Assembly (NCBI GenBank): GCA_051294905.1
Contig: CM119372.1
Span: 10,294,001-10,358,000 of the forward strand
Direction: 5' to 3'
DNA: 64,000 nucleotides
Origin: Botryllus schlosseri
Taxonomy: Eukaryota
This document shows positions 1,353 through 30,449 of the stretch, piece by piece. The first letter of the stretch is position 1. Every line of letters starts with the position of its first letter. Under the pieces are notes generated by a model. The model did not search any database. It was not told the DNA's origin and saw only the letters and a list, made by a program, of their open reading frames with translations. The position numbers and the translations under genes are program-made.

Positions 1353-3882
1353 AAGTTTAATAATTCTCCAAAAAAAACACTCTATACTTCATGTTGATTT
1401 ACAAAACGTTTGGTAAGGTGGTGATGGTGATATTTAAAAATCAGATCTATCTTTTATTTGATGGTGCAGCCCGATTTTCATTATGGTCGGGATGCTATCG
1501 TGATGTTCGCATCATCATTCCCGCGGTGGCTCGCATGTCGCCTCACCTCATTAACGCAGTCGTTATCAAGGAAATCATTTCTATGGCGTAATAACAACAC
1601 TGTCGCCTACGTTCATGGTCATCGCCACATCAACGGAGTCGCTTTAGTCTCGAGTTCTACTACGACAGCTGTTGAGCTGGACGCGTCATGTTAAGATCAA
1701 CTTTTGTCAGCGTAGATGCAGCATACCTTTTGCATATTCCATCAATGTAGTTAGGGTAAACAGGAAGCGATTTCAGTAACATATGGGTCTGTGGAAGTAT
1801 TGGGTTTACGGAACAGCTTGAATTTAAGCCAGTCTCAATCAAGACCAAAAGCAAGCAGTGCCAGTTAGATGCTCTTCATTAAGCGTACGGTGATGACAGA
1901 CGATGCACAGTGAATGCTCTTGCTATGCATGTCACTAGCGCTTCGGTAAGATAAGTAATCGACTTTGCTTGAACGCGAGAAGGCTTTTGTAAGACGAGCG
2001 CAGTGCTGCAAAGAATCCACCGAATGAGCGCAAATGAGTCCGTTGAGCTATGCCAAACAGCAGCATTTTTCTCTGAAATGTATATATAAGTGACACTGCA
2101 AGATTCAGGTATTATACAGCCAAATCATACTAGTTTCAGATGTCGCTAATACTACAAGTTAGTGGCGAATGGAGCGAAGATAACAGTGAAATCTCGCACA
2201 AAGTTCATGATGAAGAGTTGGCCCGACTTCAATTACACGTAAAGAAGACCAACCCAACGGTAGCAACCTTGAATTGTTTCAGTCTGCGCTGGGACAATAG
2301 TAGCATCGATCAAGCAATTAGCTATCGCCTATATAGAGCAGATGCGTACTGCGTAGAAGGAAATCGCGATTGTTCACTGAATTATTAAATTCCAAATAAT
2401 ATATAGTCGCCAGTCGCCACCCGGTGACCGTTGGTGAATAGTGATGCATTGTAATCAAGGAATTAGTACGGTGCAATGTTTTGTACAGTACGAAGATATT
2501 TTGACGACAAGCATGGTACGAAAAATATTATGCAACGTATGCTGTCCCAATTTCTGGTATGTAACGCATTCACAGTAACATATTATATACTTGCGGTCGA
2601 ATATAGAAGCTCCTCATTAAAAACTGCCTCAAATAATGTAATTGCAATCGCATGAAACAGCAATGTAGCAAGAAAGAGCATTGAAGCAATGACTGGTTTT
2701 TCGTTTCGGGGTATTGTTGTTTGAACCTTCGTTAAATTATATTTATCGGGCGATATTTCTGTAGCAGTACGGCTAACCCTTTCGCTTTTAATAGGATCTG
2801 TGCCCGTATCTCGTGAAATATAACTGTTTTCTAGCTAAGAAATGTTATGGACGCAAGTTCACGTTCGCACAGCAGAATCGCGTATGTATACAATGGAATT
2901 AACATAAATCGATTACATTTGAATATTTACACATGCCTCTTTCCCTAACAACCACAAAGTTGAAACATATTCCGTCGTCGGCCAGAGTCCGCAGAACCTA
3001 TATGTACGCTGTCGCGTAGCAAGATAGCGATCTAAAGTCTACCCTCCAGGGAAAACTATTCACTACTCTAGAATCTAGATTCTGGATCTAAAATATAGAT
3101 GATGATGCTACTCTTGCTTTGTAATGAAATGATCGACGTATAGCCGAGCCTTCATCGGCGTGGTTAGATGTTCCGTCCAGATTTTTAACAGTATGACGTC
3201 ATTTCGTTTGTGATGTATGCATCTTTTCTATCGTCATTCTGATAAGTTTTGCCGAAGTGATGGTCAGTGTTCATAACAGAGCGTCGACGGTGTTGTTTAC
3301 TGTACTAGATAGTATAAACACACAGTTGCATACTGTATTTGTGACTTGCGAGACACAATTGAACTAAAATCACGCATTCGAAGCTTGATTCATGCCTCAT
3401 GGTATTGATGCAGAGCATTTATCGGTCCTTCAAGTCGGAAAGGGCTGCTACTTCGTCAGACTACCGATCTCCATTTCACGGTTACAGGCAATGTTTTCTG
3501 TTTCATTGATTATATAGGCATGCATATTTTATAACGTTATCCTCGGCTACGGTGGCCCTACGATAACGTCAGCCTGCATAGGAGGTCGCAGTGTCAGGCA
3601 ATTTTATGATCAAATCCATGCCCGGAAAGATTCTCTACAGGCTGCGCAGAGCTGGGTGTGGCCTGCACAATGAGTGCACTTGTACTGGCGTATTGCTGAA
3701 GGCCTTAGTGACCTACGACTAATGTAGGATGGAATCAATATTATGCTCAATACATTTTTAAACGTTTTCCGTTCGGGCGTGGCGGACTGTGCCAGCAAAT
3801 GGTCTTCCCAAAGTATTCAAAACTGTCGATTAGAGCCCGTTGCGAAAACGGCATAGTGACTTAAATTACTTATAATTCACAG

Positions 3883-6800
3883 AAACCGGTATTCTTCCAA
3901 GACGGAGTAAGAAGAGTCGACTACGTTCTCGCCTATGACAGCTGCGATACAAAGAGGGAGGGAATTCGCGCCGACTTTGAGAAGGAACTCGTTGAGCAAG
4001 GTCTAGAACTTGAATATGAAAGGCAAGAAACGAACGATGACGATGCCGGAAGCCAGAAAAAGGTTTAAGCACTCAATTAATCATAATGTCAATCACTCAT
4101 ATATTCCGATGGCCGTATTCATCCATTGGTTCATTCGCTAACTATGCAATGTATATATTCGCTAACTTTGCCGCAACGAATGAACAATGTATTAAGGAAA
4201 TCATCTCCTTCATAAAACTACATGCTACTTGGAAAGTGCTGTGCAAATGGGCCGAAATCACTAGAATGCCGAAAGCCATAGCGGTGAATGACCTTGTCGA
4301 TAATTCTTCGAAAGTGAACTGGAAATCGGTGAGCTCCAAGTTGTGAATACGTAGTTAGGTAGTACACACGTGACGTCTTTATCCATGTATTCGAGACATT
4401 CTGTTTTAAGGTCAAGTTAGTCAAGTGCTTGTATAAACTATAGTGCCCTAGGATATTTATACATTCCATAAGGTTGCTGATTTCAACTTATAGTCCAATC
4501 CCTTCACTTTGAACATTGAGACTTATCCCTACTGTTCCCTAATAATGATGATATTAAGACGCAAGATAGCTTGATAGCGACCTACTCCGTTTTCAAGTAC
4601 GGAGTATGTCGCATATTTCATTTGCAAAATTGCTATTATCTTACAATTCGCATCCGTGGTGACTTGCGCTCGTTCGTTGTAAAAACTATGTAGTCAATTC
4701 GGATCGATCCTCCGTCGAATGAATGAGCTTTCTGTCTCTTTGTATTTTGCCTTCCTAAGTGGATCGATTCTGTCACATTACGTAAAGGGGATTTGCATTT
4801 CAGAACCACCAGCCAAGCTGATAATATACTTACGGTATCTTATAGCAAAGTGCAGCAGCCCGGTTGTGTTTCGACTGGGGTTGGGCAAAATCGAGTAGGC
4901 CTACCTGAGCGATTTGATTAAAAATCGAGTATTATGACGTCTTAAGATTATGAAAGATGTGGGAAGTTTGAATATTGACCACAAATAATATAACGTCAGT
5001 TCTACATCACATTAAAGATAACTTGATATTTTTTTGATGGTATACCTACCTATTTTATTGCTCTTGTCACAATCCTGTGGGTCGATCATGGCTTCACAGG
5101 TGGGTGGTCATTTCCGCTAACCCGCGTAGCTTTGTACAACGCGTTTCGTCTGTTGTGATACGAACAATCGAGGTTTAAAGTTTAAATTATTGACTTCTAA
5201 ATATTATGGAAACTATAACTTTCGCGGAAAAATTAACTCAGTGGCAAGGAGCGTAATATTTCAGTACTCGAAAAAATCTTCACTGACTTCTCAACTCGAA
5301 TCATTAGAATTAATACTCGATTCAGATTCGAGTACTCGAATCATTGTGCCCAGCCCCAGTTACGACCACAGGGACAAGGCTGATTGACAGAAATTGGCGA
5401 TTATCTAAATGTTTAATGGAGCAGCGCGCAGGCGCGTAGCCCGCCGAAAAATAAGGGGCGGTTGAAATACAAGGGGGGGGGGGTCGATTTTTTCGAATTT
5501 ACTAATATAGCATCAATTCATTAGCAAAAAGTACAAGCGTAAATGCCGATTATACAATCTCGTGTTGACGAACCTGCGCGTATGATAAGCTTGCCAACGA
5601 ATCCAGAAGTGCTGTCAATTAGCGATTCCCTGATCTCTCGTGACAATTAAATACGCGCGCTTATCAACGCGTGTAAAGTAGCCTCGGCGTCGACTTGCGC
5701 AAGTCAAAATGTCCGAGTTCTAGTTGTCATGGAATCTTTTCTATAATGGCACCGATTTTAGGTGGTTCCAACGTTTCTCATCTTTTATAACTTAAGCCTT
5801 GACACACATCTTCTGATAGTTATGTACGGAAATCAATTACGCATGTACAATGTACATTTGTACATTGTACAATTGTACGTGTGCGTACGTGTACATTGTA
5901 CAGTAGAGGCGTACTTGTTTGCGGTCATTCGATGTCATTCAGTTTCGCGTTGTCACTCTTTAATCGCAATCACTAATCAGCCGGCATTGTCTCCAAACCA
6001 CCAATAGATAGGAGCCAACGCATGCTAGGCCCGAGGCGCGATGGCTAGGCCAGCGATTATATCTTTCGTACCAGGCCTAATGCAGATGCGATTGTGTAGG
6101 TCAGCGATGACATCGTGTGCACCAAGCCAATGCAGATGCGATTGTGCAGGCCAGCGATGGTAGTGCGGACCGGGCCTATTGCAGATGCGATTGTTAAAGC
6201 CAGCGGAACTAGGCTTGTTGGAAAATGGAAACGCGATAAATCAGGCTGGCAACGATTGCCGAACGCACTGCAATCGATGACCTAATTTCGCAATATCTCA
6301 GCGGGAGATCACGTCGTGTTATACTGTGCACTGTGTGCAGTGTGCTCTGTACAGGTGCAGAAACGAATCTCGCTAATTGGCATCACGCTTCTGGCCAATT
6401 AGCCGCGCGCAACACTTATGAGTTGTTATGATACGACTTACTGGATTGCAACTGAATATTAGCGTCAGAATGGTCAATTCAAAATGAGGGCTTTCGCGTT
6501 TCAAAAGGTGGTTTCAACCCCCAAAACCCCCTGGCTACGCGCCTGAGCAGCGTGATGACGTTTTACTCCTACGGCTACGTCATAAACGTAATATTATTAT
6601 ATTCTACTCTCAAATTACGCCTTTTTCACCCATCCCGATCTGAGATGTTACACCGCCGCAAAGTGCCAAGGAATTGGAAATTTATGCTTCTGCTGTTCCA
6701 GCCTCTTTCCAGTATGTGGCACAAGTTTACCGATGTTCCTCACCCGAAGAAATACAATTACGATTACAACGATCATGAAAGTGACGATTCATTTTTCACG

Positions 6801-9800
6801 GCCCCGTTCGACGCTGCTCGAATCGACAAGTAAGTCAGCCGTTGAAAAGTCTGTAAAACTAAACGTTTTATCCTATATTCTTCCAATATGAGAAGACGTA
6901 GTTATGACTAATGCAACCGTTGGGTGGACTTCCCGTCTTTCGTAGAGGCGCACTGCGCTCTAAATATTATGTGGTCTCAAATTTAAGCTGAAATTGTGAA
7001 AACAATTTTGGCAGCCGCTAATGCTGTCTCAATGCTGCCTTATTTGAGCTGCATCTAAAAGGATTTTCACCAAATGCTCCATTCCACTTCGTATATCTCT
7101 GCAGTGTTGAGGTCGCGCGTCACCACTGCTTAACCCTTTTCGAAAGTTGGGGCACACATTACTTCACTGATGCCGTGGTACGTAAGATACAGTCCCTTCG
7201 TAACATATAGGCTGACAAGTATGTAAAATTCATCTTCTGTGCGACTGCTTGATCGCGTCGAGAAAGTGCAAAAGTGAAGTAATGCGCGTCCGAAGTTTCG
7301 CAAAGCGTTAAGAAGCGATGAGGCGTGACCTCGATACCGCAAATATCTAGGGACAGGAATGGTACTTTCATGAAAATATGTTGTCTGCAGTTCGAATGCA
7401 GCAGAGGTCTCAAACACGCGACCCGCGAGAACATTTTGTGCGGCCCGCGAAGGCATTTTGGAAGTTCAAGTATTCGACAATATATTCTATATATTCATAT
7501 ATCTTTTTTAGATTTAAAAACTTGATGTTCATTCTAAAACTACTACAAAAACCTGAAATCTAAACAAACTTCACTAGCAGATCACTTTTAAAATCTACCA
7601 TGCGGTGGAAGATTGCTATTACGTCACATTTCTAGTCCATCATGATGATAAAACATGACACGTTGATGATTCGTGACTGAAAATTGTGATTTTGTTTGGT
7701 GCGACCTTTCGTCAATTTACTCGACTGGGTGATAAATTAAAAGTAACTCGAGTTGAGTTTGGTCAAACGTTGAAATCAGAGATAGACTTGCGTTTCGGAA
7801 TAGTGACTTGGTAATCCTACGAACGCAACCATCTATGAAACTGTCATGGAGAATAGTAATATATCAAGAGCCCGTAGCTTGCGTTGCGTGCGGTATATAG
7901 ACACCTAATCAGGTCAGTATGGAAACCATTGGCATTCTGTGGCCCCCGTGACGTATATTTGGGTTATATCCTAAGCATTGTTAGTTCTCTTTATCCATTT
8001 TTTATCATTGGCGAGTTAGGTAGTGGTGCGCTCCACATCTGCAACACCATTGGATTCTTCGGCGATTTAACATTTCTATTCCATGGGTTCTTAATCAAGG
8101 ATCCGTATAGCCCCTTCGTGGTACGAAGCACCACATCAGGGGGTACGAGATGCATTGTGGAAATAGGCCAATATGCTCTGGAGTATTTTCTGGGCTAATT
8201 TACTCAACTGGAAAATATTCTCCGCGCTACGCGCCATTTTATGTGAATGGGCTTTCTGATTTTTATATAGGTATCATCAGAAATTGTGTTGAAAATGGAC
8301 AGGGGGCACCGGAAATCTTATTGAAAATACAAGGGTACGATCGCTTAATAGGTTGAAAATCAATGCTATTACTATGGCACAATAATGATTATGTTCAAGT
8401 TGTTATTGATTTGTTCCACTATTAGCAGAGGGAAATCCAACGCTGGTTTAATTTGACATTGGCGATGACAATAACAATAGCCTATACTTATCACGACTAT
8501 ATCAGAAACCCGGATTAGGCTACAGCGCTCTCATGCTCTGATATCAGATCGATCCTTAGTAAATTTTAAACTATTCTACATGAAATTGTGGCACGTCAAA
8601 GTTCCACTAGCTGCAAGTTTATAACCCGACAGCTTTTACGATGTCATCATGCGTCCCCTCGCATTATGTCTGTAAGTCATTATTTTAACAAATTGTACCC
8701 GGCACAAAAATAATTTTATTCAAATATCAGAAAATGTGATTTTTTCCGTGCCAAGCGTGAATAGTATAATGTAAATTATGTTTCCACGATGTTTGTGGAA
8801 TGCCTGTCTGCAAGGTCCCGTCAAATAAGGCCTACTTGGATATTAAACATTGAATACCCCTATCAGTGATGCTGCGGCCTGCGGCGTCATTAGAAATTAG
8901 GAAATTGGCGCGCGAACACATTTGAGTTTGAGACCTCTGGGATACAGTGACTTTCCTAAGATAATGGCTTACGCCAAAATGTTTTTCACACCTTCAACTT
9001 TAATTTGAGACCGCAACATGGTTTGAGCACAGTGCCGCCTTAATTTACACCTACACAATATTTTCGTCCGAAAAATATTAAAATATCCGTATCTCTTTTT
9101 GGATATCGGAATTCATGAAATTGATATGAATTAGCTCCAACCAACTATTGGCGTGCAGCCCTACACAACTGTGCAGTGCGCAGTGTGCATCCTTAACGTT
9201 GCGGTTTTGGCGTGACGTCACAACCGGTGCACCCTTTATTGAAAATACTTCTTTGCCCCTCCCTCTGCAGGCCTACAACGCATACATATCGATAAACCTT
9301 GCGAAGAGACGCAAACTTCAATATTTAGGAGAGAGAGATATGGGGAGACCACCATTGTCAGTATAACCAATCCATTTAGCGAATGGAATAACATAACGTG
9401 CAACACTGTAGGCGAAATGAGGCAATAATGCAATTATGGTCGCCTGATATGACATGGTAGTCTGAGTCCGTTTGGAAGAATGGATCAGTCCGTGAATTTT
9501 CAAAATTGCAATATAGCGAAGAACATAAAAAATATTTTCTGGTCGCCCTCTCAAACAGATTCATGATCAGAGACAAGGAGACATTTTTCACGACAGCCGA
9601 AAGACAGAGAATGGTAACTACACCGTGGAAATCTCTTCCGAAATCTCTTCAACGAATTTACAATTATCTTGCGTGCCAGGTGCTGAACATTCTCAATCGC
9701 ACGAAATTTGGCTGCTCCGAGATGGAAGTTGGAGTCAGCAGACTAGTAGATAACGAAAGCTACGTTGGCTACTTTCCACTTCACGAAGGAGACTGGAAAC

Positions 9801-12800
9801 CAAATCATCTGAAAAATGACCCCGGACTATACGACGGCAAGTCTTAGATATGCAGAACGCACAATGCTTAGCCGCAATCATTATGTTATCTTTAATTATA
9901 TAGGATTGGAGCTTAATAAGAGACAGACGTTATACTGGATATGGGCGCGCCCTGGTACTTGGCATTCCGGTCAGCCTTTGGAATTAATACGGTAAGGAAT
10001 TTCGTGTTGCGCCAACTATTGTATAGCCGAACAGGAATGCATATATTGATTTCACAGGCAATACTTTGGAGAAAAAATAGGGATGTACTTCGCGTGGTTA
10101 GGTTTCTATACGGCGATGCTAGTGCCGGTATCGATCCTCGGCCTTCTCACTTGTATTTACGGACTGGTCATCATTCAAGACGACACCATCAGGTAACATA
10201 TGTGATTGATTTGTTAATTAACGGAGTGATTGATTATTGCGAACTTGTAACACATAGCAAAGAAACCTGCGACTCCAACATTACCATGTGTCCACGATGC
10301 GACGAGTTTTGTCCGTTTTGGAAACTGAAAGACTCGTGCACTTACTCTGTTATTACCCGGGTTTTTGATAACGAGGTCACACTTGTATTTGCGCTCATCA
10401 TGTCTCTTTGGGGTGAGTTTCAATGCTCACAAAATGTTACATCAAAGTATTTGCCTTGTTATTGTATTACAGCTACGATTTTTCTTGAATTCTGGAAAAG
10501 AAAACGGGCGGCGTTGGTGTATAAATGGGATTTGGAAGAATTTGAGGAAGAAGAGGTTTGTACGCGATTTCATTGCCAGTTATATACTGCAATATAGCTG
10601 TTGTGCGCTGTTGATGTTTGCATAGGATCAAATCAGACCGGAATACGAGGGCCTGTGTAAGAAGAAAAAGGTTAATCCCATAAATGGACAGGACGAACCG
10701 TATCTTCCCCTTCGGCAACGTATTCCAAGATTAGTGGGCTCGGTGTCTGTATTTTTTGTTCTGGTAAATTGTTTTCTGGATTATTGGACATTTATAAAGT
10801 ATCTTCATTCGCCCTTTGGTAATTTGTCACTGTATCATGGTTCACAAGATTGCTAATGACGAATAACATCAAACTTATTCGTTTTATACATTATTTATGG
10901 TTTTCTTAATTAATCATGCACCCGACTGCTCAGACGCAAGATGCGTAAAACGCAATGTACATTTCTGGATTATATACCAAGACGTCCATCTCCGGCCTTT
11001 GGCGGCTATGATATAGCAAATCTCCAAGATCCAACTATGAATTTATGACGTTATTGTGATAACTATTTCATAATATCGTAGTATCCTTTATGTGTCGCTG
11101 TTCCAAATGATGGTGCCGCTGTTTATACGTGTCTGTAGCGTTTGTTTTGATAAATTGATAGATGACTTTGGTTCTTGGTGCTGTGTTCGGAGTGGTGGTG
11201 TATCGCATCATCGTCGCAACAATCCTGCCGAGAAGATCAACGGGAATAGTGCAGAATAACTCCAGTCTTCTCACTTCAATAACCGCATCTTGCATCAACT
11301 TCGTGGTTATCACTGTGATGAACATGGTGAGTTCGTCTATATCGTCTATGTGTAATTCTGTATGAATGGTAAACTATACATAAAGTTGGAATTGTGCTTT
11401 CTTCTCACGATATTGTCTTATATATCACAACGCAAAATTCACTCCTAAACTCACAATTCAAAGTTCACCGCTATTTGCAGTTATACGAAAGGCTCGCTGA
11501 ATATTTGACCAATTTGGGTGAGTAATTTTGTATCTTATATTGTAATCAATTCTTGCATTGTATATATTTTGCTATACCTATTGCGCTCGCTCATCGCGAA
11601 CTGGTAGCTGCCGACGAAAATAGCTTACAGTCCACGCTGCTCCCTGCGATAAGCGCTGGTATTGTGAAATATATATTTCATCTTTCTTTGGAAATAAAAA
11701 ATAAAAAAAATTATTACATCCGACACTCTATACTGGGCACTTTGGAGTGTTTCACTGTATAGAGATGTGTATAAATAAATAAACCACAGGAAAATGCGCC
11801 CGGAAATTGGATCGTAAAGTTGCCAATCAAACTGTGATCTTGATCTATAGAGTCAATGCGATTCAAACGGAACTGATTCCACTTGGCGAATTCCACCCTG
11901 AATCTGTGAAATAGTGGGTATTAGAGAATCCTCATCATTATATAGCGTCGTCCGTATAATATATCACTGGCTCAGAGCAGTTATATGAGGAGCGACTGCG
12001 TACAGGTGAAGATGTCAATACGCCAGCAAAGAATTACAATCAGATTTGTAAATGATGTGCGTCGGTGTTCTTACCGTATTCCTCATGGCCAAGTTCAACG
12101 CATGGAAACGTGGGGCCTGACCACGAATACGGAAATACGAAATGCAATCGATTCAACGATTGCTTAAGCTTGTTGCAATGTCGAAATAAGGTACTCTTTC
12201 GATCGACATTCCTCAATTCTCGTCGTCTGATGCATTACTTTCGTCTGACTCCTCATCGTCTTCTTCTTCGCCACCTCCGTCTTCGTTATCGCTGTCCGCT
12301 TCGCCGTGAAGCCGCAAATATCGACATCTCTTCATTTCTTCCCATTGCTCCGGGTCAAAATCTGTTTGGTTTTCGGCGGGTATGCTGAAATCCCTGGATT
12401 CGGGTTGGTGTGATACGTTTCGGGATACGGGAGGCATCATGAATACGCCTAATGGAGCCTGGAACACATTATTATTCAAGATTACTGTCAGTTTGATAAA
12501 TCCTAACAAACTGTTTTCAGTACAGTGATATATAAGTTATGGTCGTAAAAACTTCGCGCACACAGGTAAAGCCAAATCATTACGATTCTTAACGTTGTGA
12601 TAGTGAAGTACCCAAATCTGCATTAACATCACTCATAACAGACGGATAAAATTTGCTGTGATTTCTTATTTCAATGCTTGTCTAGTCGATTCGACAATGT
12701 CGCGTCATATATCAATCACGCTACAGCATATACCGGCATTTCCAAACAACTCCGGTGAAGGGATTAGGATTTTAGTTTTCGCGTTTTTGTAGGAGGGTCG

Positions 12801-15800
12801 GCATTCCGCAATGCCCATCCCTGTCATGTGCTGTATTTGGCAGGCCGCGGAGCTATGTAATATCACAGCGGCATCACCAGTGTTTTCTGCAGGGATACTG
12901 ACGAAGAGTAAGACATAACCGTATAGCAAGGGTTCTAATTGTTACCTCCGGCTTTTCGATTTCTTCATTTGAATCGTCGTCATCGAAATCATCATCACTG
13001 TCACCATCAACCATTCCTGCAAACATAGGCCTGCTTACTAATTTAATCGTACCCACTGATGTATTCAGAATTGGTAGCAATTGAAAACATGACAAATCCA
13101 TTCTTAAATCTATAATTACCATAACCATATTCGTTAGACCAGTGGTTCTCAACCTGGGGGCGCGCCCCCCTTAGGGGGGCGTGAAAGCATTGAAGGGGGC
13201 GCGAAGAAACGGTCAACTGAAATAATTTTTCGCGCTCTGCGCGATTTACCCCCAGCTCACGCGCGTTTCTCTATATATAGACCTAATTTCATATTTTTAA
13301 TTCACTCATCAACACTCATAACCTTCCATGTCATCAAAAATCTGTTGGGGTTGCTAGCATCCCCTTGGGATTTTGCGATATGACTTTAAGGGGGGCGCGG
13401 AATTTTTCACTATCAAAAAGGGGGGCGTGTCTAAAAAAAGGTTGAGAACCACTGCGTTAGACCGTCAGTCCAGGCTTCTGCAAACTATATGACATTCGTA
13501 TCCGATATAAAACCGTGAATCACATATCACGTATAGTTGAAAACCCCAGCGTCTCATTTTGAATGGGTGGCGAGACTTGTCAATAAGTTGGATATCGGGC
13601 TAACAATCGTGAATAGCCGAAGGGAACATCGAAATCTTCCAGCGTTCTTTTTAAAATCACAGTATTGTTACGTCCTACTTTGCCTAATTGGTTTTCATTT
13701 GAATCTCTGTTTCTATGCTTGTTATTTTGAGGTTAATTCTTGATATACGGGCACACGAAAAGTCTTCGAGTTATACTTTTTACACTGCGATGAGTCCTAA
13801 AATGAATAAATATTGAAAAATGTCTTTGCAACGTAAGCATATGCATATTTTTGTGGTTCGGATCTTTTGTTACGCCAGAGGCTCCTCTCCTGGCAAGAGT
13901 TTCACACTTTCGGAGGGAATTGGCGATTTGAAGTCACGCGCATAAGATATGTCTATTGTCTACCTTACCCATATAGACCAAACCAATTAACCAAAAGGCC
14001 AAGAGATCGTCCTGTGTCCACCATATATCGGGTATTCCGTAAAAGGGGTATGGATGCGGATAGGATAAGGATTAAACAATTTTTCGAAAACACCTGCGTC
14101 GGGGTTTGGGAATAGTATTCCTATTGATGTTATATTTTCGGGTAATGTGAGATCTTAGCAAACCCGGAATGGACTTGGTGATACTATAGGAATAGATACA
14201 TATGTTGCAGTGGAATTAAGACTGAGATCTGGATAGAAGATACCTAGGCCGTCGAAAGTTTTCCTTTCCTTTCGCTTCCAAGTTTCCATTTCGCCACGTA
14301 GGTCCACGCTGCCTCTCGGCTCTCTCGGCGGAGTCAGGTATCCCGGACTCATTCCCGTGTCGCCATATACCACGTATTTATGTCTGCGCGGTTTCTCTTT
14401 ACGTTCCGCTATCTGAGTCTTGTCGCCCGCGTTTTTATCATCTTTTGGTTGTTCCTTTGGGCTCTCAGTAACGGTCGGATTCTTGTGAATATCATCCGTC
14501 AATTTTGCCTGGGATAGCGCAAATCCTATACTTTCCCTGACATCTTTAATGTGTTGATCAATCTCATTATCGCTGTCGGAATCGTAGTCGTCACTGTGGT
14601 CTGTTTTTGGATGTTTTATTTGATCTGATGCGGTGTCGGAGCCTTTTCCGCCTTTCTGTAATGTATCCGCCGATTGAGGGGGGTTCGCACCTGTAGTTGC
14701 AGCGGTAGTCATTGTTTTTCTAGTTACATTAGGACTTCGTGGAAATCTTGGCGATCCGAGGGGACTCTGCATTTTCGAGAGAGAAGATTAGCGTTGGTCT
14801 TATTATAATTAGCCTTATCTTTGTGATGGTACCTTGTGTTTGATGATCTCGTCAGACTTCTTCAACATGTAACTACCCGCCTTTCCCGTCGTGTTGCTCA
14901 AATAGTGTGTACGAATTAGCTTGTCGCTTACCGAAAGAGAAGGTGAGCCGATCGGAGATTGCTTAGGCGAATGTCGCGGCGAGTTCTTTGGGCTGTCGAT
15001 TGGATGAGGTGGAATTGAATGCAATGATACGCTTTTACGTAATGCAAAAATCGAGCATTCATAATGTTGAGGCGGTATTATTTGGCGCAGTAAAAAAATA
15101 TAGGGAAACCAATATCACCAAGTCAAAGGGGTTGGTTAACACCGTGTGTTGAACATGGTGTAGCGCCGACCCCGGCACGCGTCCAATGATTTTTCATGGC
15201 ACGATTCTTTGTTTATTTATTATAGTTGTGCTCACCGTAAATATACTATTTCATTCAAATCCAAATTTTTCGACGGCAATAAATCCGCTTCCACTGGTTG
15301 GAATTGAACCAAATTTGGTGAACAACTATAATAAATAAACAAAGAATCGGTCACCGTAAATACTATTTTATTCAAATCCAAATTTTTCGACGTCAATAAG
15401 TCCGCTTCCACTGGTTGGAATTGAACCATCGTGAATTATTTATTTTTATGTAATAAATAGAAACTTTCTTCTCATGTAGCAAAGGGGTTACTGGCTGGAA
15501 TTGAACCAAATTTTGTGTGTAGGCTTAAATTAGGTAACCTAACAATTTTATCAAGTAGCCAGTACGATTGGAGAAAAAAAGTCATTTTTGAAGAGCCCTG
15601 TAAGTTGTACGGGTACATATAGCCGCAACGATGGGTTGCGGGTTTGAGTCCGACCGAGGTCGACTCCCCAAGTTCTTTATGTTTATGTTTATGTTTGTGT
15701 AGACCCAGGGCTGTAACAGCACTTCGTCAGCCCCCCCCAAAACGTTGGTCCTGGGCCCCTCATAAGGTGATAAATACAACTTCTGGGGGGCTCCGCCCCC

Positions 15801-18800
15801 CATACCCCCCCAGGCCATACGCTGTTTACCCCTCCTTATCGTCGACATTGGGTGCCGTTTAGTGAGTCAGCTATTCTAGCCTAAACGCGCGAAATTTCTA
15901 TAATTCATTACTGAATCGGTCAATATGACCAGGAATTGCATATATTTTGCAATCAATTTCTATCCTCTCTCTGGTCTCTCTGCTCACGTAATCTGATTTA
16001 CCGGTAGAGCTGAGTAAGGTGTGTTTGAAAAGGTAGTACCCCTCAATAATAATTAAATATCTCCGGGTGTATATCCACCCGTTGGCAGGAACGAAACAGC
16101 ACTTCGTCATGCCCCCCCAAAAAACTTGAGTCTTGGGCTCCCATAGGGTGATAAACCGACCCCCCTTACGTTGTTCGCTTTTGTTACGAAATTATAGTTG
16201 CACTGATTAGCGAGCCAGCGCGAAGCGCAAAATTTTTCTATAATTCATGATGAAATCTGTCAATAAGATCGAGAATTTCATATATATAACTATCAATTTC
16301 TTGTCCTCTCTGCCCACGTAATCAGATTTGCTGGTAGAGCTGAGTGAGGTGTCTTTAAAACTGTAGAGCCCGCAAATAACAATTAAACACCTTCGGGTGG
16401 GCGGACTCGTTGGTATAACTTCGTTACATGATGTTATGTCGTGACATCCTTTGTCTGCTATATCAAAAATATAGAATCGCCCAAACGTACAAAACTAAAC
16501 GATCATGCAATTTCAAATTGGTATTTCTTCACTGGCATATAATTTTTCCCTGCGGGATGGTATTTGTCTTGTGAAGTTCAGATTGCCAAGACAGGAACAT
16601 TCGGCGCCAGTCATTTAGGCACCCGTGGACAATTAAACCTATATGTATTTTGTATATACAACGAAGTTTTCAGTCAGCATAAGGGCAGTCTTTTCCAATA
16701 TGCCCATTTCTATAAATGTTGCGTATTTTTTCCTGGGGGAAGAATACCGAATAATCAAGATATGTGGCAACCTGAAATCGCGCATAGCGCGAAAATTTTG
16801 AAAAAGTTGCATGGATTTAAAAAAATACACTTATCATTTACGCTAATTCACGAAATAATTTTGGGCCCCCTTCGAGCTCGCCCCCCCCCCAATTGGGAGG
16901 GGGGTAGGCGGGCGGCAGTTACGGTCCTGTGTAGGCCCCTCCTCTCCATCTGATCCGCGTGTAAGCGGTTTCATAAAATCTAGAAGTGAGCCGTGCTATA
17001 CAAATCGGCAGCTACGGAATCATAATATAGAATATCGGTATGGTGTAAATGGCCATTGCAGTCGAAAAACACCATCAATACCACAAACAACAATGACATA
17101 CCTATTATTATCAACGTTAAGTTTCGTCCAACTCGTCGATCGACTACTTTTCGTCACTTGCAGAAAGTCTTTTCTTCTAGGAGACGGTGATATATCGCTC
17201 GGATCCCTACCTGTAAAGTAGCACATTGCGCTCAACCTCCGAAGACTATTGGTAATCCCATCGACGATATCTTACCGCTTCTTTGAGCTGCTCTACTCAG
17301 CATAGGAGAATTCGGCATTGATCTGTTTCCGGAGGGTGGCAAAACGCTTAGCATTTTCATGTTCTCCCTGTGGACTTGAAGCGGGTCCTTGAACGTTTGT
17401 GTGGCTTCATCCATTTTCTCTGTCTACGACGTCTGATAGATTGAATCTAGCTAAAAGCATATGAGCTCTGTCCGGATATATACATACCGCTTTTATTATT
17501 TGCGAGTTGGTAATTCTGCACCATGACAAAACAATGTGTACTTACTGGCATGTAGATCTGGCAGGGGGAGTTCTTTGTACCACCACGCGCAGCTGACGTT
17601 TCTCCGTCGTTATTCGTGTCATTGATCCATTTCTTAGAGTTGTTTTGGGGGTATCTTGTTTCGCATTATAGAATACTGAGCGTGATCTTTTGTATTATAT
17701 GACTGTTGACAGATGTCTGGAGTGAATGTCTAGCGATGGCATTGGTCGCGCGATTGAAATTCGTAATTCATAATCACCCCAACTGCTCACAAATATTCAT
17801 TTAGTCGTTTACCATGCCTTATATAGCTTGTGTCCGTTTTATCCTTACTTCGTTTTGTTCTTTATTACTTGCGTGCAAGAAGGCCTACCTGTCGGTCGGC
17901 AACTGTATTTTCTAAAATGGGGGACTGCCCATTATGCAATTTTGTGCCCGTAATATTAAATGATTTTCATTTGTTATGAGATAATGTCGTACATCTGGAA
18001 TCTTGCAATGTCTGGTGCTCTGTTAATGCGACGTCGTATTTTAGAGGCCCCCAGAACTGCTACCGACTTCGAAGACTCATTCACATTGAAGATGTTTCTC
18101 TTTCAAGCCGTGAATTACTATTCCTCAATCCTATATATAGCATTCTTCAAAGGAAAGTTCACTGGTACGCCATACCGATACAACAGACTTTTTGGATTCA
18201 GACCTGAAGAGGTAGAATAAATCTATATGATTTTGGTGATGATGCATGCAAATCATTATGCAAGCGTGAGCTGTATTGCCCGCTTCTTATGATGATTTAA
18301 CACAGTAAAATAAGTACAGGTATATTTAAAAGTACACTCCATTTGATATAAAATGGTAAATGTACTTTGATTGTCCATGTCCAAGCAAAATTGGAAGCAG
18401 TCTAAAAGTAAAATCACTTTAACTAGGTATAGTTAAATTTAAAAAGCATACCCAAGTACCCCAAAAAAGGCTCTGTTGCTTGCCATCCTCTGCCTAAAGT
18501 CGGTGCAAAAAATTGATTGATGTGACTCGCTTACAGTGTGACCCGAGTGGGTGTCTCATCGAACTCTGCATACAGCTGGGGATAATCATGATTCTGAAGC
18601 AAGCTCTCAACAACACCAAAGAGATAGGAATACCGTGGGTTAAAATATCTTTTGTACCCCATCATTTGTAAGAATCTTTATTATTTGTTCCAGATTGGTC
18701 AAGAACTGGTGGAGTAAGAGGACGTTTTTCCGAATGCGAAAAGGTGATAATATATGAACAATGGAAAAAGTATTAAATCATTCCTAGATAGTTGTTGGCC

Positions 18801-21051
18801 GGTAAGGTATTCAAAGAAATATGAAGTAGGTTAAAAATAATAGTCGCTCCAAAGAATAATTTAGTTAGGCAATTGAGAGGCGATAGAATTGGATGTAACC
18901 GGTATGACATTTCCATTATACAATTGTATACGTTCTCTTTATACCGCAAACAGTGCAAGACGAGGAGAATGAAAGCAGAACTCTGGAGGACGAGCACGAA
19001 AACCCTCTTTATCGAGACTACGTGTTGGAAGATCCTGGCAAAAGATACTTGTTCTCAGAGTATCTTGAGATGGGTTAGTACGAGTTAGTCTTCTTTTTGA
19101 AATGTCCATTTTTCAAAAGCATATTTCCAAGATTATTTTCCAAGGCAGGAATCGAGTGAAAATTGTCACCATGGCGGCATAGACGTAATCATGAGGCGAA
19201 AGGTGCCTACGTCCTACTCACAATTTTTGACTTAAGCTTTATTGCGTCATTTATTTTCACTATGTCACATTAGACCCGCGACGTCACGACATTGTAAATA
19301 ATTTCTCCCCCCACCCCCACCCCCCACAGAAATTGTCATCCGACCCTCCCAGATTTTCATATACTGACTATTATCTATGGCTCTCACTGTTGTTATTATT
19401 CATTCAATTCTAATTTAATAAAATCATTCCAGTAAAAATGGAGTGATTGCAAAGTACAAACTCCACAGAAAAGTTTGCAACCAGAAACTAAGATGTTCGA
19501 AAGTATTTACTCAACTATAATGAGCGTTAAGAATAGTTCTGGCCTCGAGTCACGAAATCGAAAACGATTTTGATTCCGTGTTGCAGTACCCGACATTTAT
19601 GTCAATTGTTGTCACGAACATCTCGCGAGTTGGCGCATTACTGACTAACTGTGGCACCGGGTGTAGTCATGGCCTATTCTATATTATATTAGCCCGCGAG
19701 AATACCCATGGCAGACTTGACATAGTCTTAAAAGTTTGTGGATTGTCTTGAAAATATGAAGAGGTAGGTCTATAGTAAAAAATCAAAGTCACTTGATGAG
19801 CATCACTTGCAAAGCCATATTAAAAGCTTGACTGCTGCCTACTTTGCTGTCGACTAGCAGCCTGTTGTAACCTATAAGTAAAGGTAAACCGAGGCATGGT
19901 TGCATGTACGATTGTACGAATATACATTGTACATGTACAGTACAACATTACATTATGCGTGTCAAATTGTACTTATAATATATTATTATTCTCTATTCCA
20001 GTTATACAATTCGGATTCGTGACGTTGTTCGTGGCCTCCTTTCCTCTCGCACCCTTTTTCGCGCTGCTCAATAACATTATAGAGATTCGCATAGACGCTT
20101 ACAAGTTTACGACACAGATCAGAAGATTGCCGGCAATTCGGGCGGAGAACATTGGTATATTTCGAGTATTCATTTCAATCGATTTTCTTCGATTGAGTTT
20201 ATCATTTAGGCGGATGGTTCGCAATACTGAAGGCCATCAGTACCGTGGCTGTTATAACTAACGGACTTGTAATCGCTTTGACTTCGGAATTCGTACCACG
20301 TTTGGTGTACAGATACCTCTACAGTGCTTGCGCTGCTAATAGCACCGTAACATACCCAGAGTATGTATTATATACCTCAAGTTTCACGAGAAGAGGTCGG
20401 TAACAGCCTGTTTCGATTTAGCTGCATGGCGGGATATATCAATGCAACTCTGGTCAGCATTCCGGTTGACCGAATAGATCGTGGGGACGTTGCGCCGTAT
20501 AACTCATCTATTCCTGCGATACCCGAGGACTGCTGGTAAATCTTGTTTAGCCTAAACAGCTATATATGGAAGTTTTATTCATCCTTGTGCCTCAATTTTC
20601 CATACTTATCTAAAATTACCTTGTTTCGTTTTCTAGGTTCCGCGCCTCAGACCCTGGGCTCCCATCACAGCCAATCATTCCATACTGGCATGTTTTTGCG
20701 GGGCGCATCGCGTTACTGGTGGTTTTTGAGGTGGGTGTGACGTAATTTTGCTTCAATCCGTTTTGAAACTTTGCATTACATTTTTAACTTCTCCTTGTCC
20801 GCCAGCACGCCGTATTCGGACTCAAAATCTTAATTGATCTGATCATACCCGATGTCCCGGAACACCTGAAGCAGCAAATGTCGAGACAGAAGTATTTGGA
20901 GCTGAAACTGTTGTATGAGAAAGGTGTCGTTATTGTCTAATACTATATTAAGATTGAAATTGAAAATTGCCTGGGGAATACATATCTTACAGGACAGAGA
21001 GAGGCCGGATTGACTTCTGAAGCCGTGACTTCACCAGAGGAGGGGGTATGA
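3883..21051 (+). CDS. Anoctamin/TMEM16 family Ca2+-activated channel/scramblase, multi-exon; start codon upstream of 3883 not resolved
   Basis: Phase-consistent exons: 3883-4062 ([15 protein letters not shown]), 4197-4328, 6702-6829, 9559-9613, 9680-9836 (YFPLHEG), 9904-9991 (QPLELIR), 10058-10192 ([17 protein letters not shown]), 10258-10412 (MCPRCD...FDNE), 10473-10555 (FLEFWKR), 10626-10763, 11162-11326, 11481-11517, 18045-18211 ([22 protein letters not shown]), 18537-18634 ([14 protein letters not shown]), 18694-18743, 18954-19073 (EYLEM), 20002-20154 ([33 protein letters not shown]), 20210-20360, 20422-20535, 20637-20730, 20806-20923 (IPDVP), 20993-21051 (stop). These are hallmark anoctamin motifs. 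The paralogue cannot be assigned by eye. Confidence 0.95.
4876..5358. mobile_element. Non-autonomous hAT-type element
   Basis: TIR TGGGGTTGGGCA / TGCCCAGCCCCA, 8-bp TSD gtttcgac/gttacgac, subterminal TCGAGTA/TACTCGA repeats. Confidence 0.75.
5429..6545. mobile_element. Non-autonomous TIR element with internal ~50-bp tandem repeat
   Basis: TIR CAGGCGCGTAGCC / GGCTACGCGCCTG with flanks agcagcgcg/agcagcgtg. Three units containing TGCAGATGCGATTGT at ~6070-6205 and a TGTACA-rich tract at ~5822-5905. Confidence 0.75.
6946..9040. mobile_element. Long-TIR Kolobok-like element hosting a hAT MITE
   Basis: Imperfect ~65-bp inverted ends (AGGCGCACTGCGCTC...GGTCTCAAATT...TTTTGGC vs GCCAAAA...AATTTGAGACC...GAGCACAGTGCCGCCT). 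The right end runs into TTAA. The termini resemble the 62667-63155 element. Confidence 0.65.
7402..8939. mobile_element. hAT/Charlie(Buster)-like non-autonomous element
   Basis: TIR CAGAGGTCTCAAAC / GTTTGAGACCTCTG, subterminal CGGCCCGCG, degenerate TSD gaatgcag/ggatacag. Confidence 0.75.
12213..17414 (-). CDS. Uncharacterised Ser/Pro-rich, acidic-tailed protein (~428 aa), nested antisense in anoctamin intron 11518-18044
   Basis: Six GT-AG bounded exons join in frame: 17414-17276, 17210-17102, 15031-14833, 14766-14244, 13016-12946, 12458-12213 (1287 nt including stop). An optional 27-nt exon lies at 14120-14094. Many SP motifs, a D/E-rich tail and [13 protein letters not shown] near the C-terminus. 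No family recognised; the start codon is uncertain. Confidence 0.75.
13140..13454. mobile_element. hAT/Charlie(Buster)-like MITE
   Basis: Perfect TIR CAGTGGTTCTCAACCT / AGGTTGAGAACCACTG, perfect 8-bp TSD cgttagac, GGGGGCGCG subterminal motifs. Confidence 0.92.
15232..15428. repeat. Tandem duplication, ~119-bp unit (about 1.7 copies)
   Basis: TCACCGTAAATA...TCCGCTTCCACTGGTTGGAATTGAACCA starts at 15232 and 15351, with a further partial motif near 15490. The motif resembles the interior of the 57728-58099 element. Confidence 0.85.
15706..16929. mobile_element. hAT-type non-autonomous element with internal duplication
   Basis: TIR CAGGGCTGTAACAGC / GCAGTTACGGTCCTG, TSD tgtagacc/tgtaggcc. The segment starting ACAGCACTTCGTCA is repeated at ~15716 and ~16096. 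Confidence 0.75.
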
Positions 21052-23102
21052 ACGATATATTGCTGTGAAGACAGCTTGTACATCAGCAAAGGTGTTGAAT
21101 TGGTCTATAAACGGAGTCGTGTAGTCAGGATTTGCTTCTCGTGGCAGATGCGAACGACACCCTACCATTTGTATGGTACAAACCCAAACTCCCATCATAG
21201 CCTTACTTGCAATCATGACGAGCCTTATTATTGCTACATCATTTTCTATTTCATTATATGTCGGCCTATTAATTGTTGCATGTTAAGTAATTTGTTATGA
21301 CATTAGTCTCCTTTGGTTGTGGTGTGCAGTGAATCGTGAAAATATTTTCGTAACTATATGTCAGAGTGAAAGGTTGGGATTGTAAAATTATAAAAGAGCG
21401 TTTCCGCTTAACGGATCCCTCTCAGATTCGCATTCTCTGTGTATTTCGAAAGTTTTAACATTCCTGCACGATGACAATAAAATGCCGTTCCAATGGGTGG
21501 AATTATACAGGTTTGTGTAATAAGGAAATCCTTGTAATACCAGGGAAGATAAACACGGATGGCGCGAGTAAGCAGTGCCTTATTCTCGCTTTTGATAATT
21601 TCGTGACACTGCCATTTCCAATATTACAATAATGGGATAACGTAAGGAGCGGTAAGTTTTAAGGACCCGTTGTGCGCTTCTAGCTATATATAACTATTCA
21701 GCGCGCCGACATTTTGACTACCTTACGTCCTGCTTTAGGAGGATTCCTCATTTTTCAGGAAATCGAAAATGACCTCCGAGGAATCCCAAATGTTCTCATT
21801 TTTGGCAATTCTTCCTCTTTTATAGCTTTGTCAGTCCGACGATGGTACAGGCAGAACTAAAAAACGCCAGAAATGACGCTGAATATGGAATCTAGACGCT
21901 TACGCGGGTCCAATGATATATCATTGTGCGGGTCTTTCGGGAGTCGAGTTTTGAAAATGACCATTGTTTTAGTTTTCCCGTGCAGAATTTCAAATTACCC
22001 TCTCCTCCAGATCTCAAAATATGGTAACCCTATCTGAAGATTCTTAACTGCAATGGTTACTATCTCACAATTGAATGGTTTCATTTTCATTTTATTGGCA
22101 CTACTAAAGTACAAATGATAATACGAAGTGCGACACGATAAAATTCAATTATGACACTCAAGTTGTATTTATCATTGATCCACATAAATCAGATGTGGAA
22201 CAAATAGGTCAAAGTGAAAGTGAGCATATTGCACAGAAATATCTAGGCCTACACGACACGTATCAGAATCGACTGTGGGGACTATTCAAAACGATTTCAA
22301 GTGAAAATAGAAATGACAGGTACGATTATTACTTTGGCTTTGAAAAGTTGTGGATCAAGACTAGACTTCGCGCTGAGATTCATCAGTTAATCACAAAATA
22401 ACTCGAAAATGTGTCAGAATTAAGTGGGGCTTCGAAGCTATACTCTAGTCTCGGGCTATAGTGACTGTATCATCTGGTGGATATGGAGGTTTCTCCGATG
22501 AGAACGATACAAATATGTTCAAAATATACCTCCCAACTTGACAAAAGTCAGTAGTACTTTTAATTAAAAAAGTAATCTTAAGTTAAAGACCACTCTTGAC
22601 ATTCAGTAGTGCAACTTCACAATTACCTACTGAATGCACATGCACAAGTCCTTGAACGATATGTATGCATTGAAGACGGCAGTACCTGGTGCTTTTCTAA
22701 TACAGGGTTTCCAAAAACTTTTTCCTCGCGGCTCCTCTAATTTTCCAAACATTTCTTGCGACCCCGCACGAATGTAATTATAGGCATTTCTTACGACCCA
22801 GCACGAATATAATAGGTTATACAGGACGGGAAAAAACTCCACAGGCTGATGCATCGAGACTCGAGAGTCATGCTTGGTGCCAAGACGCCGCTTGAACTTT
22901 CAATCTCGTTGATCTTAACACACTCAATACACTATCACTTGCAGACTGCAGTATGCTATCTTAACTACTGTTGTTTTTCGGAGTTTATTCTTAACCAGAA
23001 ATTCATTGATTCGATTAGTGTTGTGTGTCCACTGTCCAGTGTTCAATCGTAGGCTACTGTAGCAGCGGTACGCAACCTTCTACGCGCAGTCATGTGCATG
23101 GG

Positions 23103-24434: not shown

Positions 24435-25736
24435 TCACAATGATTTCTGCTTCTTTATAAAAGATACAGTGTCACGACGCTTGATTGGGTGAAACCAGTC
24501 CAGAAATGCTACGATCAGTAAGGCAACGGACGCACAAAGATACCATGTACGACCAACGACAGGGCCGCACTTGTAATACAATTGCAAACGAACTTTTTGA
24601 GGAAGGAGTTCCTGTTCTGCAATCAAATTGTAGACATTTTCGGTTCTCTCCGCCACTTTGGGCCAAGTGTAGAGACACGATGTACGCCGGTACATATCCA
24701 AAGGCTTGATATGCGAGTCCTCACGATACCGGAGTATCGCCTCTTCAACGCCGTTGACCAATGATGGCACAGCTGCTTCCGTTAATATTATCATGTCCTG
24801 AGGTAGGACCTCAGGAACACCACCAACGCAAGTACTTACAACTTGAAGTCCGCAGCACGCAGCTTCAATAATAGCTATACAGAAAGCTTCCGTGAGCGAT
24901 GTATTCAAAAATATATGTCCTTCTACCAATACATCCCTGACACTCGTGTGAGGTACGGCTCCTAAAAAGGTGACTCGTTCATACAGCTGGAACTTTTCTC
25001 TCATTTCTTCAAGCACGAGCCTTTTAGGACCGTCTCCACCTATTACAAATTCAATGTCCCTGTGCCTTTCGCATAGAATCGGTATGATAGCTGCAAGAAG
25101 ATCGGCACCTTTTCTGTAAACCAACCGGCTCATCACGACGATTCGTATCTTATCTGGTACCCTCTTTTCTTCATCTGGGGTGAACTTTGTGGCATCGACA
25201 GCATTGGGTATGACATAAACATTGCTCGGGTCGAGATTGGCTCGCAGCACTGTATTTTCTTTGCTGGTGTGAGAAACACAAATAACATGGTTTGTTCCCA
25301 CCAATGTTATTTCCAACAGTTTATTAGTTATGATTGAGCTGCCATCGGCAAATCCGAAGAGGGAGTGATCAGTGAAAACAGTGCGAATGCCTAACGACTT
25401 GGCGTGATTAATAGCTTCATGGGCCATTGTGGAAAATGCAGAATGCCCATGCACAATCGTAATGTTCTCATGCAACAATACGCTTCGTATCAGCGGAATT
25501 GTGCCCAAGTATGTAGGCAGGATGCATTGATTGTACATGACAACGTACGGGAGGTAGTATACTTTGAGGAAATTTGTAAGGTACCGGATGCCTTTCTTCT
25601 CTCCATACGAATGGGTGATCACTATCACCTTGTGTCCTCGAGCGATCAAACATTGCGAAAGTTGATAAATATGGCTTTCTACTCCGCCCACATTGGGGTA
25701 AAAGAAATCAGATACCATTGCAATACTGTGCTTCAT
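24435..25736 (-). CDS. PIGA: Phosphatidylinositol N-acetylglucosaminyltransferase subunit A (GPI anchor biosynthesis), single coding exon
   Basis: Motifs [44 protein letters not shown] and [22 protein letters not shown], plus a C-terminal hydrophobic segment. The ORF is open to 25790; the ATG at 25736 (MKHSIAM) lies just before the conserved start. Confidence 0.97.
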
Positions 25737-30299: not shown

Positions 30300-30449
30300 C
30301 TTAGCCCACGAATTAGAGTGCATTAAGCAGTGACTTACTCACGAGAGGTGACTTGGATATGGTCGTAGCATTGATTTTTCATTTTATTCAACTTGTATGC
30401 ATAAACTTTCAGTTTATATACATAGTGTAAATAATCCAGAAAAATACTT

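Follow-up and report, generated by a model that had tools for sequence, protein, structure and literature searches.

A long intron on the plus strand of an ascidian gene raises the question of whether it houses a second gene, read in the opposite direction, and of what sort of protein that gene would make. The locus lies in a window of 64,000 nucleotides of Botryllus schlosseri (the whole stretch of DNA analysed). A sequence-only reading had placed in a 6.5 kb anoctamin intron, at 11518-18044, six minus-strand exons with GT/AG borders, joined in a frame of about 428 aa. RNA joints and homology confirm that the nested gene exists. The interpretation that we favour, with a probability of roughly 0.6, is that an independent six-exon gene in an old anoctamin intron encodes a disordered, phospho-switched adaptor with a C-terminal docking motif, working independently of its host.

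A spliced gene within an anoctamin intron

When a Styela anoctamin protein is compared with the window (tblastn), 16 colinear matches extend from 3880 to 20922. The gene also displays six spliced joints and 3' reads in the RNA runs, and its plus-strand exons match Pfam Anoctamin (PF04547, 41-62.6 bits) and Anoct_dimer (PF16178, 51.4 bits), both above cut-off. With Styela 'anoctamin-4-like' as best match (E 3.5e-22), the host gene is, as judged by similarity, the ortholog of that gene. The intron of interest, the longest mapped in the host, is borne out by joint 11517>18045 in a single X1 contig, that is, in one of the four RNA runs examined (X1, X4, X21 and X23, out of 24 listed). Paralogous anoctamins on C12 and C9 have an intron at the identical position and phase, of 420 nt and 575 nt, without a nested gene; this comparison covers the two mappable paralogs (intron short and empty in both), the C7 anoctamin, which has no match at the intron position, being left out.

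The coding part of the nested gene, 12213-17414, falls wholly within the host intron (Table 1). Its last two introns appear as CT..AC joints, 12457>12945 and 13015>14243, in X1, X4 and X23 (three of the four runs, from three studies) and are absent in X21. These joints confirm the two introns; introns 1-3 have no RNA joint among the 15 rows listed (of 70) and draw their support from splice signals and homology. In X23 all 7 nested junction reads are opposite in direction to all 3 host junction reads, the strandedness of this run being uncertain, as its 3' UTR depth bins are mixed in direction (2.1/1.86 and 1.04/1.22). X21 has a depth of 3.65/0 over 11706-12106, in the direction opposite to that of the host 3' end (0/19.9). 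Among the runs returned by a separate sequence search, none is catalogued as RNA. The upstream border of exon 4 is marked by RNA contigs ending at 14766-14768. The X1 contig ending at 17540 carries 13 further letters that are unplaced. The introns of the nested gene are full of repeats; the MITE-like element in intron 4, perhaps hAT-like, stands out by its very high read depth, and loose ends occur at 13454.

The exact length of the product depends on exon 3, where four options give 382, 395, 415 or 428 aa. Donor 14833 is fixed by homology with Styela (score 591-595, against 426-431 with an earlier GT), and the 382-aa model was dropped, the alignment carrying exon 3 past the GT at 14931. The two acceptors are near-equal against Styela (14992, CAG, 591; 15031, AAG, 595), the upstream one adding 13 aa. 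With exon 3 at 15031-14833 the 428-aa frame first proposed is reproduced exactly; however, because all RNA-confirmed introns at the locus (8/8) end in CAG or TAG, we prefer acceptor 14992 and a protein of 415 aa.

That the frame is more than a product of chance is supported in several ways. Four of the six exon segments beat all 500 shuffles when matched with the Styela protein: exon 1 scores 93 against the Styela N-terminus (best shuffle 50) and exon 3 scores 176 (best shuffle 54). The score of exon 2 was reached by 8/500 shuffles and that of exon 5 by 212/500, hence no significant homology for exon 5 alone, yet this exon is confirmed by RNA. Among the variants listed (40 of 412 variant rows), 8 of the 12 coding ones are synonymous, where 21-26% would be expected (P 0.001-0.003); exon 4 contributes five synonymous variants out of seven listed. 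This excess, together with an ortholog at E 3e-73, places the nested frame under purifying selection. Low-complexity sequence and repeat-rich introns might have suggested chance open reading frames, a pseudogene or a non-coding antisense RNA, an explanation that we hold to be extremely improbable, refuted as it is by the open frame, the spliced joints, the synonymous excess and the colinear ortholog. The nested gene is an opposite-strand protein-coding gene, transcribed and spliced; it is single-copy, with itself as the only match in its own genome (three single-sequence searches).

Table 1. Features of the nested gene and its host, in window coordinates
Feature	Position	Strand	Evidence and remarks
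Host anoctamin gene	3880..21300 (ends approximate)	+	tblastn colinearity, Pfam, spliced joints, 3' reads
Host intron carrying the nested gene	11518..18044 (6527 nt, phase 1, GT..AG)	+	RNA joint in X1; position and phase common to paralogs
5' UTR, at least this far	17415..17540	-	X1 contig end at 17540; contigs unstranded
Coding exon 1, ATG at 17414	17276..17414	-	Splice signal, Styela homology, X1 contig 17273-17540
Coding exon 2	17102..17210	-	GT/AG and phase; weak homology; no joint among those listed
Coding exon 3, SPxxSP relay and best-conserved internal block	14833..14992	-	Styela homology; four variants compared
Coding exon 4	14244..14766	-	3' joint in X1, X4, X23; homology; variants
MITE-like repeat in nested intron 4	13140..13454		15-bp terminal inverted repeats, 8-bp target duplication
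Coding exon 5, acidic	12946..13016	-	Both joints in X1, X4, X23
Coding exon 6, stop codon and acidic tail	12213..12458	-	5' joint in X1, X4, X23; four phmmer matches
Conserved C-terminal motif PP-x-RD[FY]xIP-x-Ex[WF]Ex[LM]KxCRYLR, ~45 aa	12312..12443	-	Alignments; leave-one-out scores; predicted helix
3' UTR, to at least 11739, perhaps 11565	11565..12212	-	Contigs X1 11565-12256, X4 11739-12091

The nested protein and its relatives

The Styela clava protein XP_039268729 (LOC120343572) aligns with the nested protein end to end and colinearly, with 168/477 identical residues (35%). It has the same SPxxSP blocks and C-terminal motif and differs by its length (478 aa, against 415-428) and its longer central linker. 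The nested gene is not a species orphan, and the earlier idea that it is possibly lineage-specific holds loosely, since a full-length ortholog is present in Styela and a weak match to the C-terminal motif in a gastropod. At NCBI, LOC120343572 was earlier named 'eIF5B-like' and is now 'uncharacterized'; no mention of it was found in the literature. An eIF5B identity was rejected, no Pfam family being detected for P0005.

As the first reading claimed, the protein is predicted to be disordered: order-promoting residues make up 16% of it and it has no hydrophobic segment, and the Styela ortholog has a low pLDDT (43.9), which, as a single-sequence prediction, points weakly in the same direction. 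The repeated SP motifs and the other motifs quoted earlier are all present; exon 4 contains a second SPxGSP, a low-complexity linker and a conserved HKY..YG.T..SPG.L.PP.EPRGS block. S/T-P sites number 14, against 6.2 expected, and SPxxSP occurs five times here (at 83, 87, 91, 95 and 137) and three times in Styela (at 101, 105 and 147), against 0.11 expected and in 0/2000 shuffles each. The repeats are of the S/T-x3-S/T(P) type, and, being spaced by four residues, they agree with the consensus for primed GSK3 sites, SX3or4S(P), as quoted in PMC5954166. That the protein is a substrate of proline-directed kinases, as had been proposed, agrees with the S/T-P enrichment and with relays kept in Styela; phosphorylation itself we infer. 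SPxxSP had no occurrence in the literature among the matches listed. The distant motif carriers P0006 and P0008 either lack the relay or have it at no significant level, and it is therefore not general to the family.

What the carriers share is the C-terminal motif, which gives leave-one-out profile scores of 31.6-66.0 bits (shuffles, at most 9.5), ends in a predicted helix (positions 33-46 of 48) and, in 5/5 proteins, is separated from the C-terminus by 10-32 residues. Besides the nested protein and its ortholog, PP..RD..WEE[LM]KxCRYLR is found in two ascidian-like fragments, in an unplaced metagenome protein and, weakly, in a Nucella snail protein, a borderline match (E 0.016) found by the very profile it supports. 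Both Nucella lapillus KAL8622356 (581 aa, hypothetical) and the JGI protein P0006 (387 aa, hypothetical) resemble the nested protein in having PP..RD..E[WF]E.LK.CRYLR at the C-terminus after a long polar region; outside the motif neither resembles the Styela protein significantly, and neither has a significant SPxxSP relay. A phmmer search of the full library with exon 6, the only exon so searched, returned four matches; metagenome pattern scans gave 95 and 357, none confirmed, and a literature search for 'CRYLR' gave nothing relevant by title among the matches listed. The motif, for which there is no Pfam model, may extend to molluscs.

No family had been recognised at first sight, and the searches agree. 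No Pfam family passes for 5/5 motif members or 4/4 homologs, NCBIfam (a prokaryotic library) matches 0/4 proteins, and two PDB searches gave 0 matches. Atlas returned acidic-tail look-alikes only, all below 0.9, and nothing for the motif; ANAPC15 was rejected, having no family domain in its favour and an Atlas score of 0.77-0.78 that probably comes from the acidic tail. When homologs of the last exon were sought by word seeding, 0/176 candidates were retained, a weak test, since it missed even the Styela ortholog. Could the protein, then, belong as a diverged member to a named family of animals, possibly of vertebrates, that escaped the searches? Ascidian proteins evolve fast, word seeding has low sensitivity (176 and 426 candidates) and the full HMMER library was searched with the last exon only; against this stand the Pfam, PDB and Atlas results and the renaming of the ortholog at NCBI, and we consider such membership unlikely.

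Another candidate identity is a disordered, phospho-controlled regulator akin to inhibitor-1/DARPP-32 or inhibitor-2, whose C-terminal motif would dock a Ser/Thr phosphatase. RVxF-type motifs dock PP1, and in inhibitor-1/DARPP-32 a PKA-phosphorylated threonine acts as pseudo-substrate. The sole Pfam trace, DARPP-32 (E 0.18 and 0.054), covers the motif, several RRxS/T-type sites occur in P0006 and P0008, and F-S-I-P-A..D-P of the nested protein resembles F-S-V-P-A..D-P of a DARPP-32 peptide (PMC12835820). However, the PF05395 match reaches 12.3 and 14 bits for a cut-off of 24.6, in one of the five motif members; the RVxF, PxIxIT and LxVP patterns are absent in 4/4 proteins; in place of the KKIQF of the same DARPP-32 peptide stands ESRDF; homologs do not keep the D-P part of the likeness; and the 415-aa model has no [RK][RK]x[ST] site, the aligned place reading KRCRYL. 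With a sub-cut-off score and both docking motif and PKA site missing, membership in PF05395 was rejected, and the broader kinship is doubtful. Like inhibitor-1/DARPP-32, the nested protein is acidic, predicted to be disordered and rich in candidate phosphorylation sites; the FSxPA..DP likeness is superficial and the homologs do not share it.

Origin and meaning of the nesting

In Styela, host isoforms XP_039268720-28 and the nested ortholog XP_039268729 have consecutive accessions, taken here as a proxy for genomic position, and both lie on a 25,587,678-bp contig; linkage with the anoctamin is therefore apparently conserved, and nesting in its intron probably so. In the account that we prefer, the nested gene would have entered the old intron before the split from the Styela lineage. 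Its minus-strand transcript, which probably has its promoter within the host intron above 17540, would undergo normal splicing, as seen for introns 4 and 5 and as presumed for introns 1-3, yielding a largely disordered intracellular adaptor of about 415 aa. The conserved C-terminal motif of this protein would form a short helix upon docking to a conserved partner. The tandem SPxxSP, a conserved pattern, would serve as a relay in which a proline-directed kinase does the priming and GSK3 extends the phosphorylation, thereby switching binding or stability. Host and nested gene would be functionally independent, with interference, if any, a side effect.

Alternatively, the nesting itself might be functional, the nested transcript acting on the channel gene through interference, through intronic polyadenylation or by inducing it, so that the pair stays together. 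A precedent exists in C. elegans, where ceh-10 induces its host polq-1 (excerpt of PMC12274878). The apparent linkage in Styela, a nested 3' UTR ending about 50-220 nt from the host donor, and a rise of host-sense single-cell reads at 11305-11705 (3.46, against 0.06 in the preceding bin) would fit. Yet this rise is explained by internal priming at an A-rich tract (11692-11717); none of seven Styela host isoforms differs from the longest near the nested-gene intron (the differences are N-terminal only); and host and nested RNAs occur in the same samples. Retention of nesting alone is not unusual, about 25-31% of human/mouse nested pairs with orthologs remaining nested, to follow the available part of PMC11694760. 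A functional nesting thus seems improbable to us. We would give as little credit to a bolder conjecture, in which the motif PP..RD..WEE[LM]KxCRYLR is an ancient chordate-mollusc docking motif for a core signalling enzyme (e.g. a Ser/Thr phosphatase) that defines a still unnamed family of regulators, disordered and switched by phosphorylation, whose remaining parts are free to turn over, while co-regulation keeps the ascidian member locked within the anoctamin intron.

The novelty is modest and consists of a verified gene model for an ascidian protein family without a name, with a compact motif that has no Pfam model and whose ~45 residues could serve directly as bait in pull-downs. In addition, the pair offers a clean example of a gene that entered an older intron in one of several paralogs and has apparently stayed there, useful for asking whether old nested pairs are co-regulated. 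Many animal genes are nested on the opposite strand, so the layout alone would not surprise specialists. Among the matches listed, the nested-gene literature held no anoctamin-hosted case. To judge from the accessible parts of the two sources, C. elegans has ceh-10/polq-1 and 566 other opposite-nested pairs (PMC12274878), and mammals have a catalogue of their own (PMC11694760); as in the present locus, these are whole genes with exons of their own lying in a host intron on the opposite strand, and the locus does not differ from them in kind.

The nested gene and its RNA

Six exons on the minus strand, bordered by GT/AG, form a single open reading frame within the large intron of the anoctamin host (coordinates are collected in the table), much as the sequence-only reading had it when it joined them into about 428 amino acids. 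Alignment with the Styela ortholog carries exon 3 beyond its first GT, at 14931, as far as the donor 14833/14832, which is followed by an intron of 66 nt. The acceptor of this exon may be a CAG at 14992, giving 415 residues, or an AAG at 15031, giving again 428. Homology leaves this choice undecided, since the two models score 591 and 595, respectively, against the Styela protein; CAG or TAG terminates 8/8 RNA-confirmed introns, which favours the 415-residue model.

RNA evidence comes from four sequencing runs of the 24 listed, belonging to four studies; X1 and X4 are taken as RNA by guess only, and both also skip host introns. X1, X4 and X23 show joints across nested introns 4 and 5, with CT..AC ends, and the single-cell run X21 shows none; the joints of introns 1-3 are absent among the best 15 of 70 rows. 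Contigs stop at the predicted borders 17273 and 14766, with 26 and 107 further letters beyond. Junction reads of X23 run in one direction for the nested gene (7/7) and in the opposite one for the host (3/3); because its depth bins across the nested 3' UTR are of mixed direction, the strand call rests on splice ends. In X21, depth is 3.65/0 in the nested 3' UTR bin and 0/19.9 at the host 3' end. Coding variants, from 40 of 412 variant rows, are synonymous in 8 of 12 cases, against 21-26% expected (P 0.001-0.003). Minus-strand spliced reads and frame conservation, on which the proposed gene was said to depend, are both found, in the CT..AC joints and the colinear Styela ortholog, and the observation is confirmed. 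Spliced host and nested RNAs occur in the same samples, and this neither shows nor excludes, at the level of single cells, the collision of transcription that had been envisaged.

Features of the window (the last five gene names are putative)
Feature	Position	Strand	Remarks
Host alignment to Styela anoctamin-4-like protein	3880-20922	+	16 colinear pieces
Host intron	11518-18044	+	
Pile-up of host-sense single-cell reads	11305-11717		directly before A-rich tract with two plus-strand AATAAA, within nested 3' UTR region
Nested gene, coding	12213-17414	-	six exons
Nested intron 5	12459-12945	-	
Nested intron 4	13017-14243	-	
MITE-like element	13140-13454		315 bp, in nested intron 4; 15-bp terminal inverted repeats, 8-bp target duplication
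High-copy repeat stack	15202-16918		in nested intron 2; 117-bp spaced direct repeats; two related units of ~330-380 bp
Perfect inverted repeat	15202-15349		28 bp, in nested intron 2
End of nested 5' contig	17540		exactly after genomic AG; 13 letters unplaced
PIG-A-like	24435-25796	-	long single frame, apparently intronless
LETM1-like	30435-35189	+	multi-exon
Acyltransferase-like frame	33422-33787	-	opposite to LETM1-like gene
PHD/bromo/PWWP-like	48042-49730	+	long single frame, apparently intronless
Mevalonate diphosphate decarboxylase-like	58415-59386	-	long single frame, apparently intronless

The 5' contig end may stem from a non-coding exon further upstream, from a spliced leader or from an allelic difference; the pile-up of reads may stem from internal priming or from intronic polyadenylation of host transcripts. 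The acyltransferase-like frame could represent a further gene, nested or overlapping.

An ascidian family with a C-terminal motif

A phmmer search of 1.84 billion proteins with the last exon returned four matches: the Logan fragments P0003 (89%) and P0004 (49%), Styela XP_039268729 (P0005; 478 residues) and the JGI protein P0006 (387 residues). The 415-residue model aligns with the Styela protein over 168/477 identities (E 3e-73); against it exons 1, 3, 4 and 6 outscore 500/500 shuffles, the score of exon 2 being matched by 8/500 and that of exon 5 by 212/500. In 5/5 proteins, 10-32 residues separate the shared element, PP..RD..WEE[LM]KxCRYLR, from the C-terminus. The five-row profile of this element retrieved three of 426 candidates, including its own members P0005 and P0006, the sole new one being Nucella lapillus KAL8622356 (E 0.016). 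Left out in turn, its proteins each reached 31.6-66.0 bits, the maximum over 1000 shuffles being 9.5; this test is not independent, as the proteins had been selected by search. Outside the motif, neither P0006 nor the Nucella protein has significant similarity to the Styela protein. No Ciona or vertebrate match was obtained, from which absence cannot be concluded because the word-seeded search missed even Styela with the last exon. The gene has an ortholog in Styela and, by a weak match to the motif, a possible relative in Nucella. No Pfam, NCBIfam or PDB family passes its cut-off, and the gene belongs to no recognised family, as first proposed; the earlier interpretation as a whole is partly supported. 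The nested gene, present in one copy in its own genome (495.5 Mb) by sequence searches, encodes an unnamed ascidian protein family, the motif being possibly much older. In the literature searched, which covers few subscription journals, nothing was found on the Styela gene LOC120343572, and the 'CRYLR' occurrences listed were irrelevant by title.

Order-promoting residues make up 16% of the protein, which lacks any hydrophobic segment; its net charge is -18, the N-terminal part being basic and the C-terminal third acidic. AlphaFold models the Styela ortholog alone with four short helices, one at the motif (pLDDT 43.9, weak evidence), and prediction from the motif alignment places a helix at 33-46 (block pLDDT 82). 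S/T-P pairs number 14 against 6.2 expected (reached by 2/2000 shuffles), and SPxxSP occurs five times here and three times in Styela, against 0.11 expected, without reaching significance in two distant motif carriers; its four-residue spacing is compatible with the primed GSK3 consensus (PMC5954166). Because of this composition, predicted helix and spacing, the protein is probably a disordered adaptor, whose C-terminal helix would fold upon binding and whose N-terminal part would carry a phosphorylation relay. Motif conservation and SPxxSP patterns are observed; binding, kinases and cellular location we infer. Likeness to DARPP-32, a peptide of which is given in PMC12835820, is faint (12-14 bits, cut-off 24.6), and membership is rejected, every feature tested having failed.

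Host and history of the nesting

Pfam Anoctamin and Anoct_dimer exceed their cut-offs on the plus-strand exons, and the colinear alignment to Styela indicates an intact host gene. Of the four runs, X1 alone has a contig that skips the large host intron. Styela clava provides the nearest named relatives of both host and nested proteins. Variation among the eight isoforms of its host ortholog (XP_039268720-28) is confined to the N-terminus and suggests several promoters. Their accessions run consecutively with that of the nested ortholog (XP_039268729), and both genes are on a contig of 25,587,678 bp, which points to adjacency; nesting in Styela would be the simplest reading of it.

Four anoctamin loci were found in the Botryllus genome. 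In the C12 and C9 paralogs, an intron (420 and 575 nt, respectively) matches the host intron in codon and phase, so the host intron predates them; mapping of this position failed for the C7 locus, and the comparison is with C12 and C9. As the nested protein matches 0/3 of the paralog stretches, the gene most simply would have entered the host copy of the intron. Within the same C12 intron (L004:3600-3834), the start of the downstream exon is partly duplicated ~196 bp upstream, without an AG acceptor.

No anoctamin nesting appears among the matches listed in the literature searched. The arrangement itself is a known one, that of an opposite-nested gene: according to PMC11694760, nested genes prefer the largest intron of the host, and conservation between human and mouse holds for 25-31% of nested pairs with orthologs, a pattern that the present layout fits.
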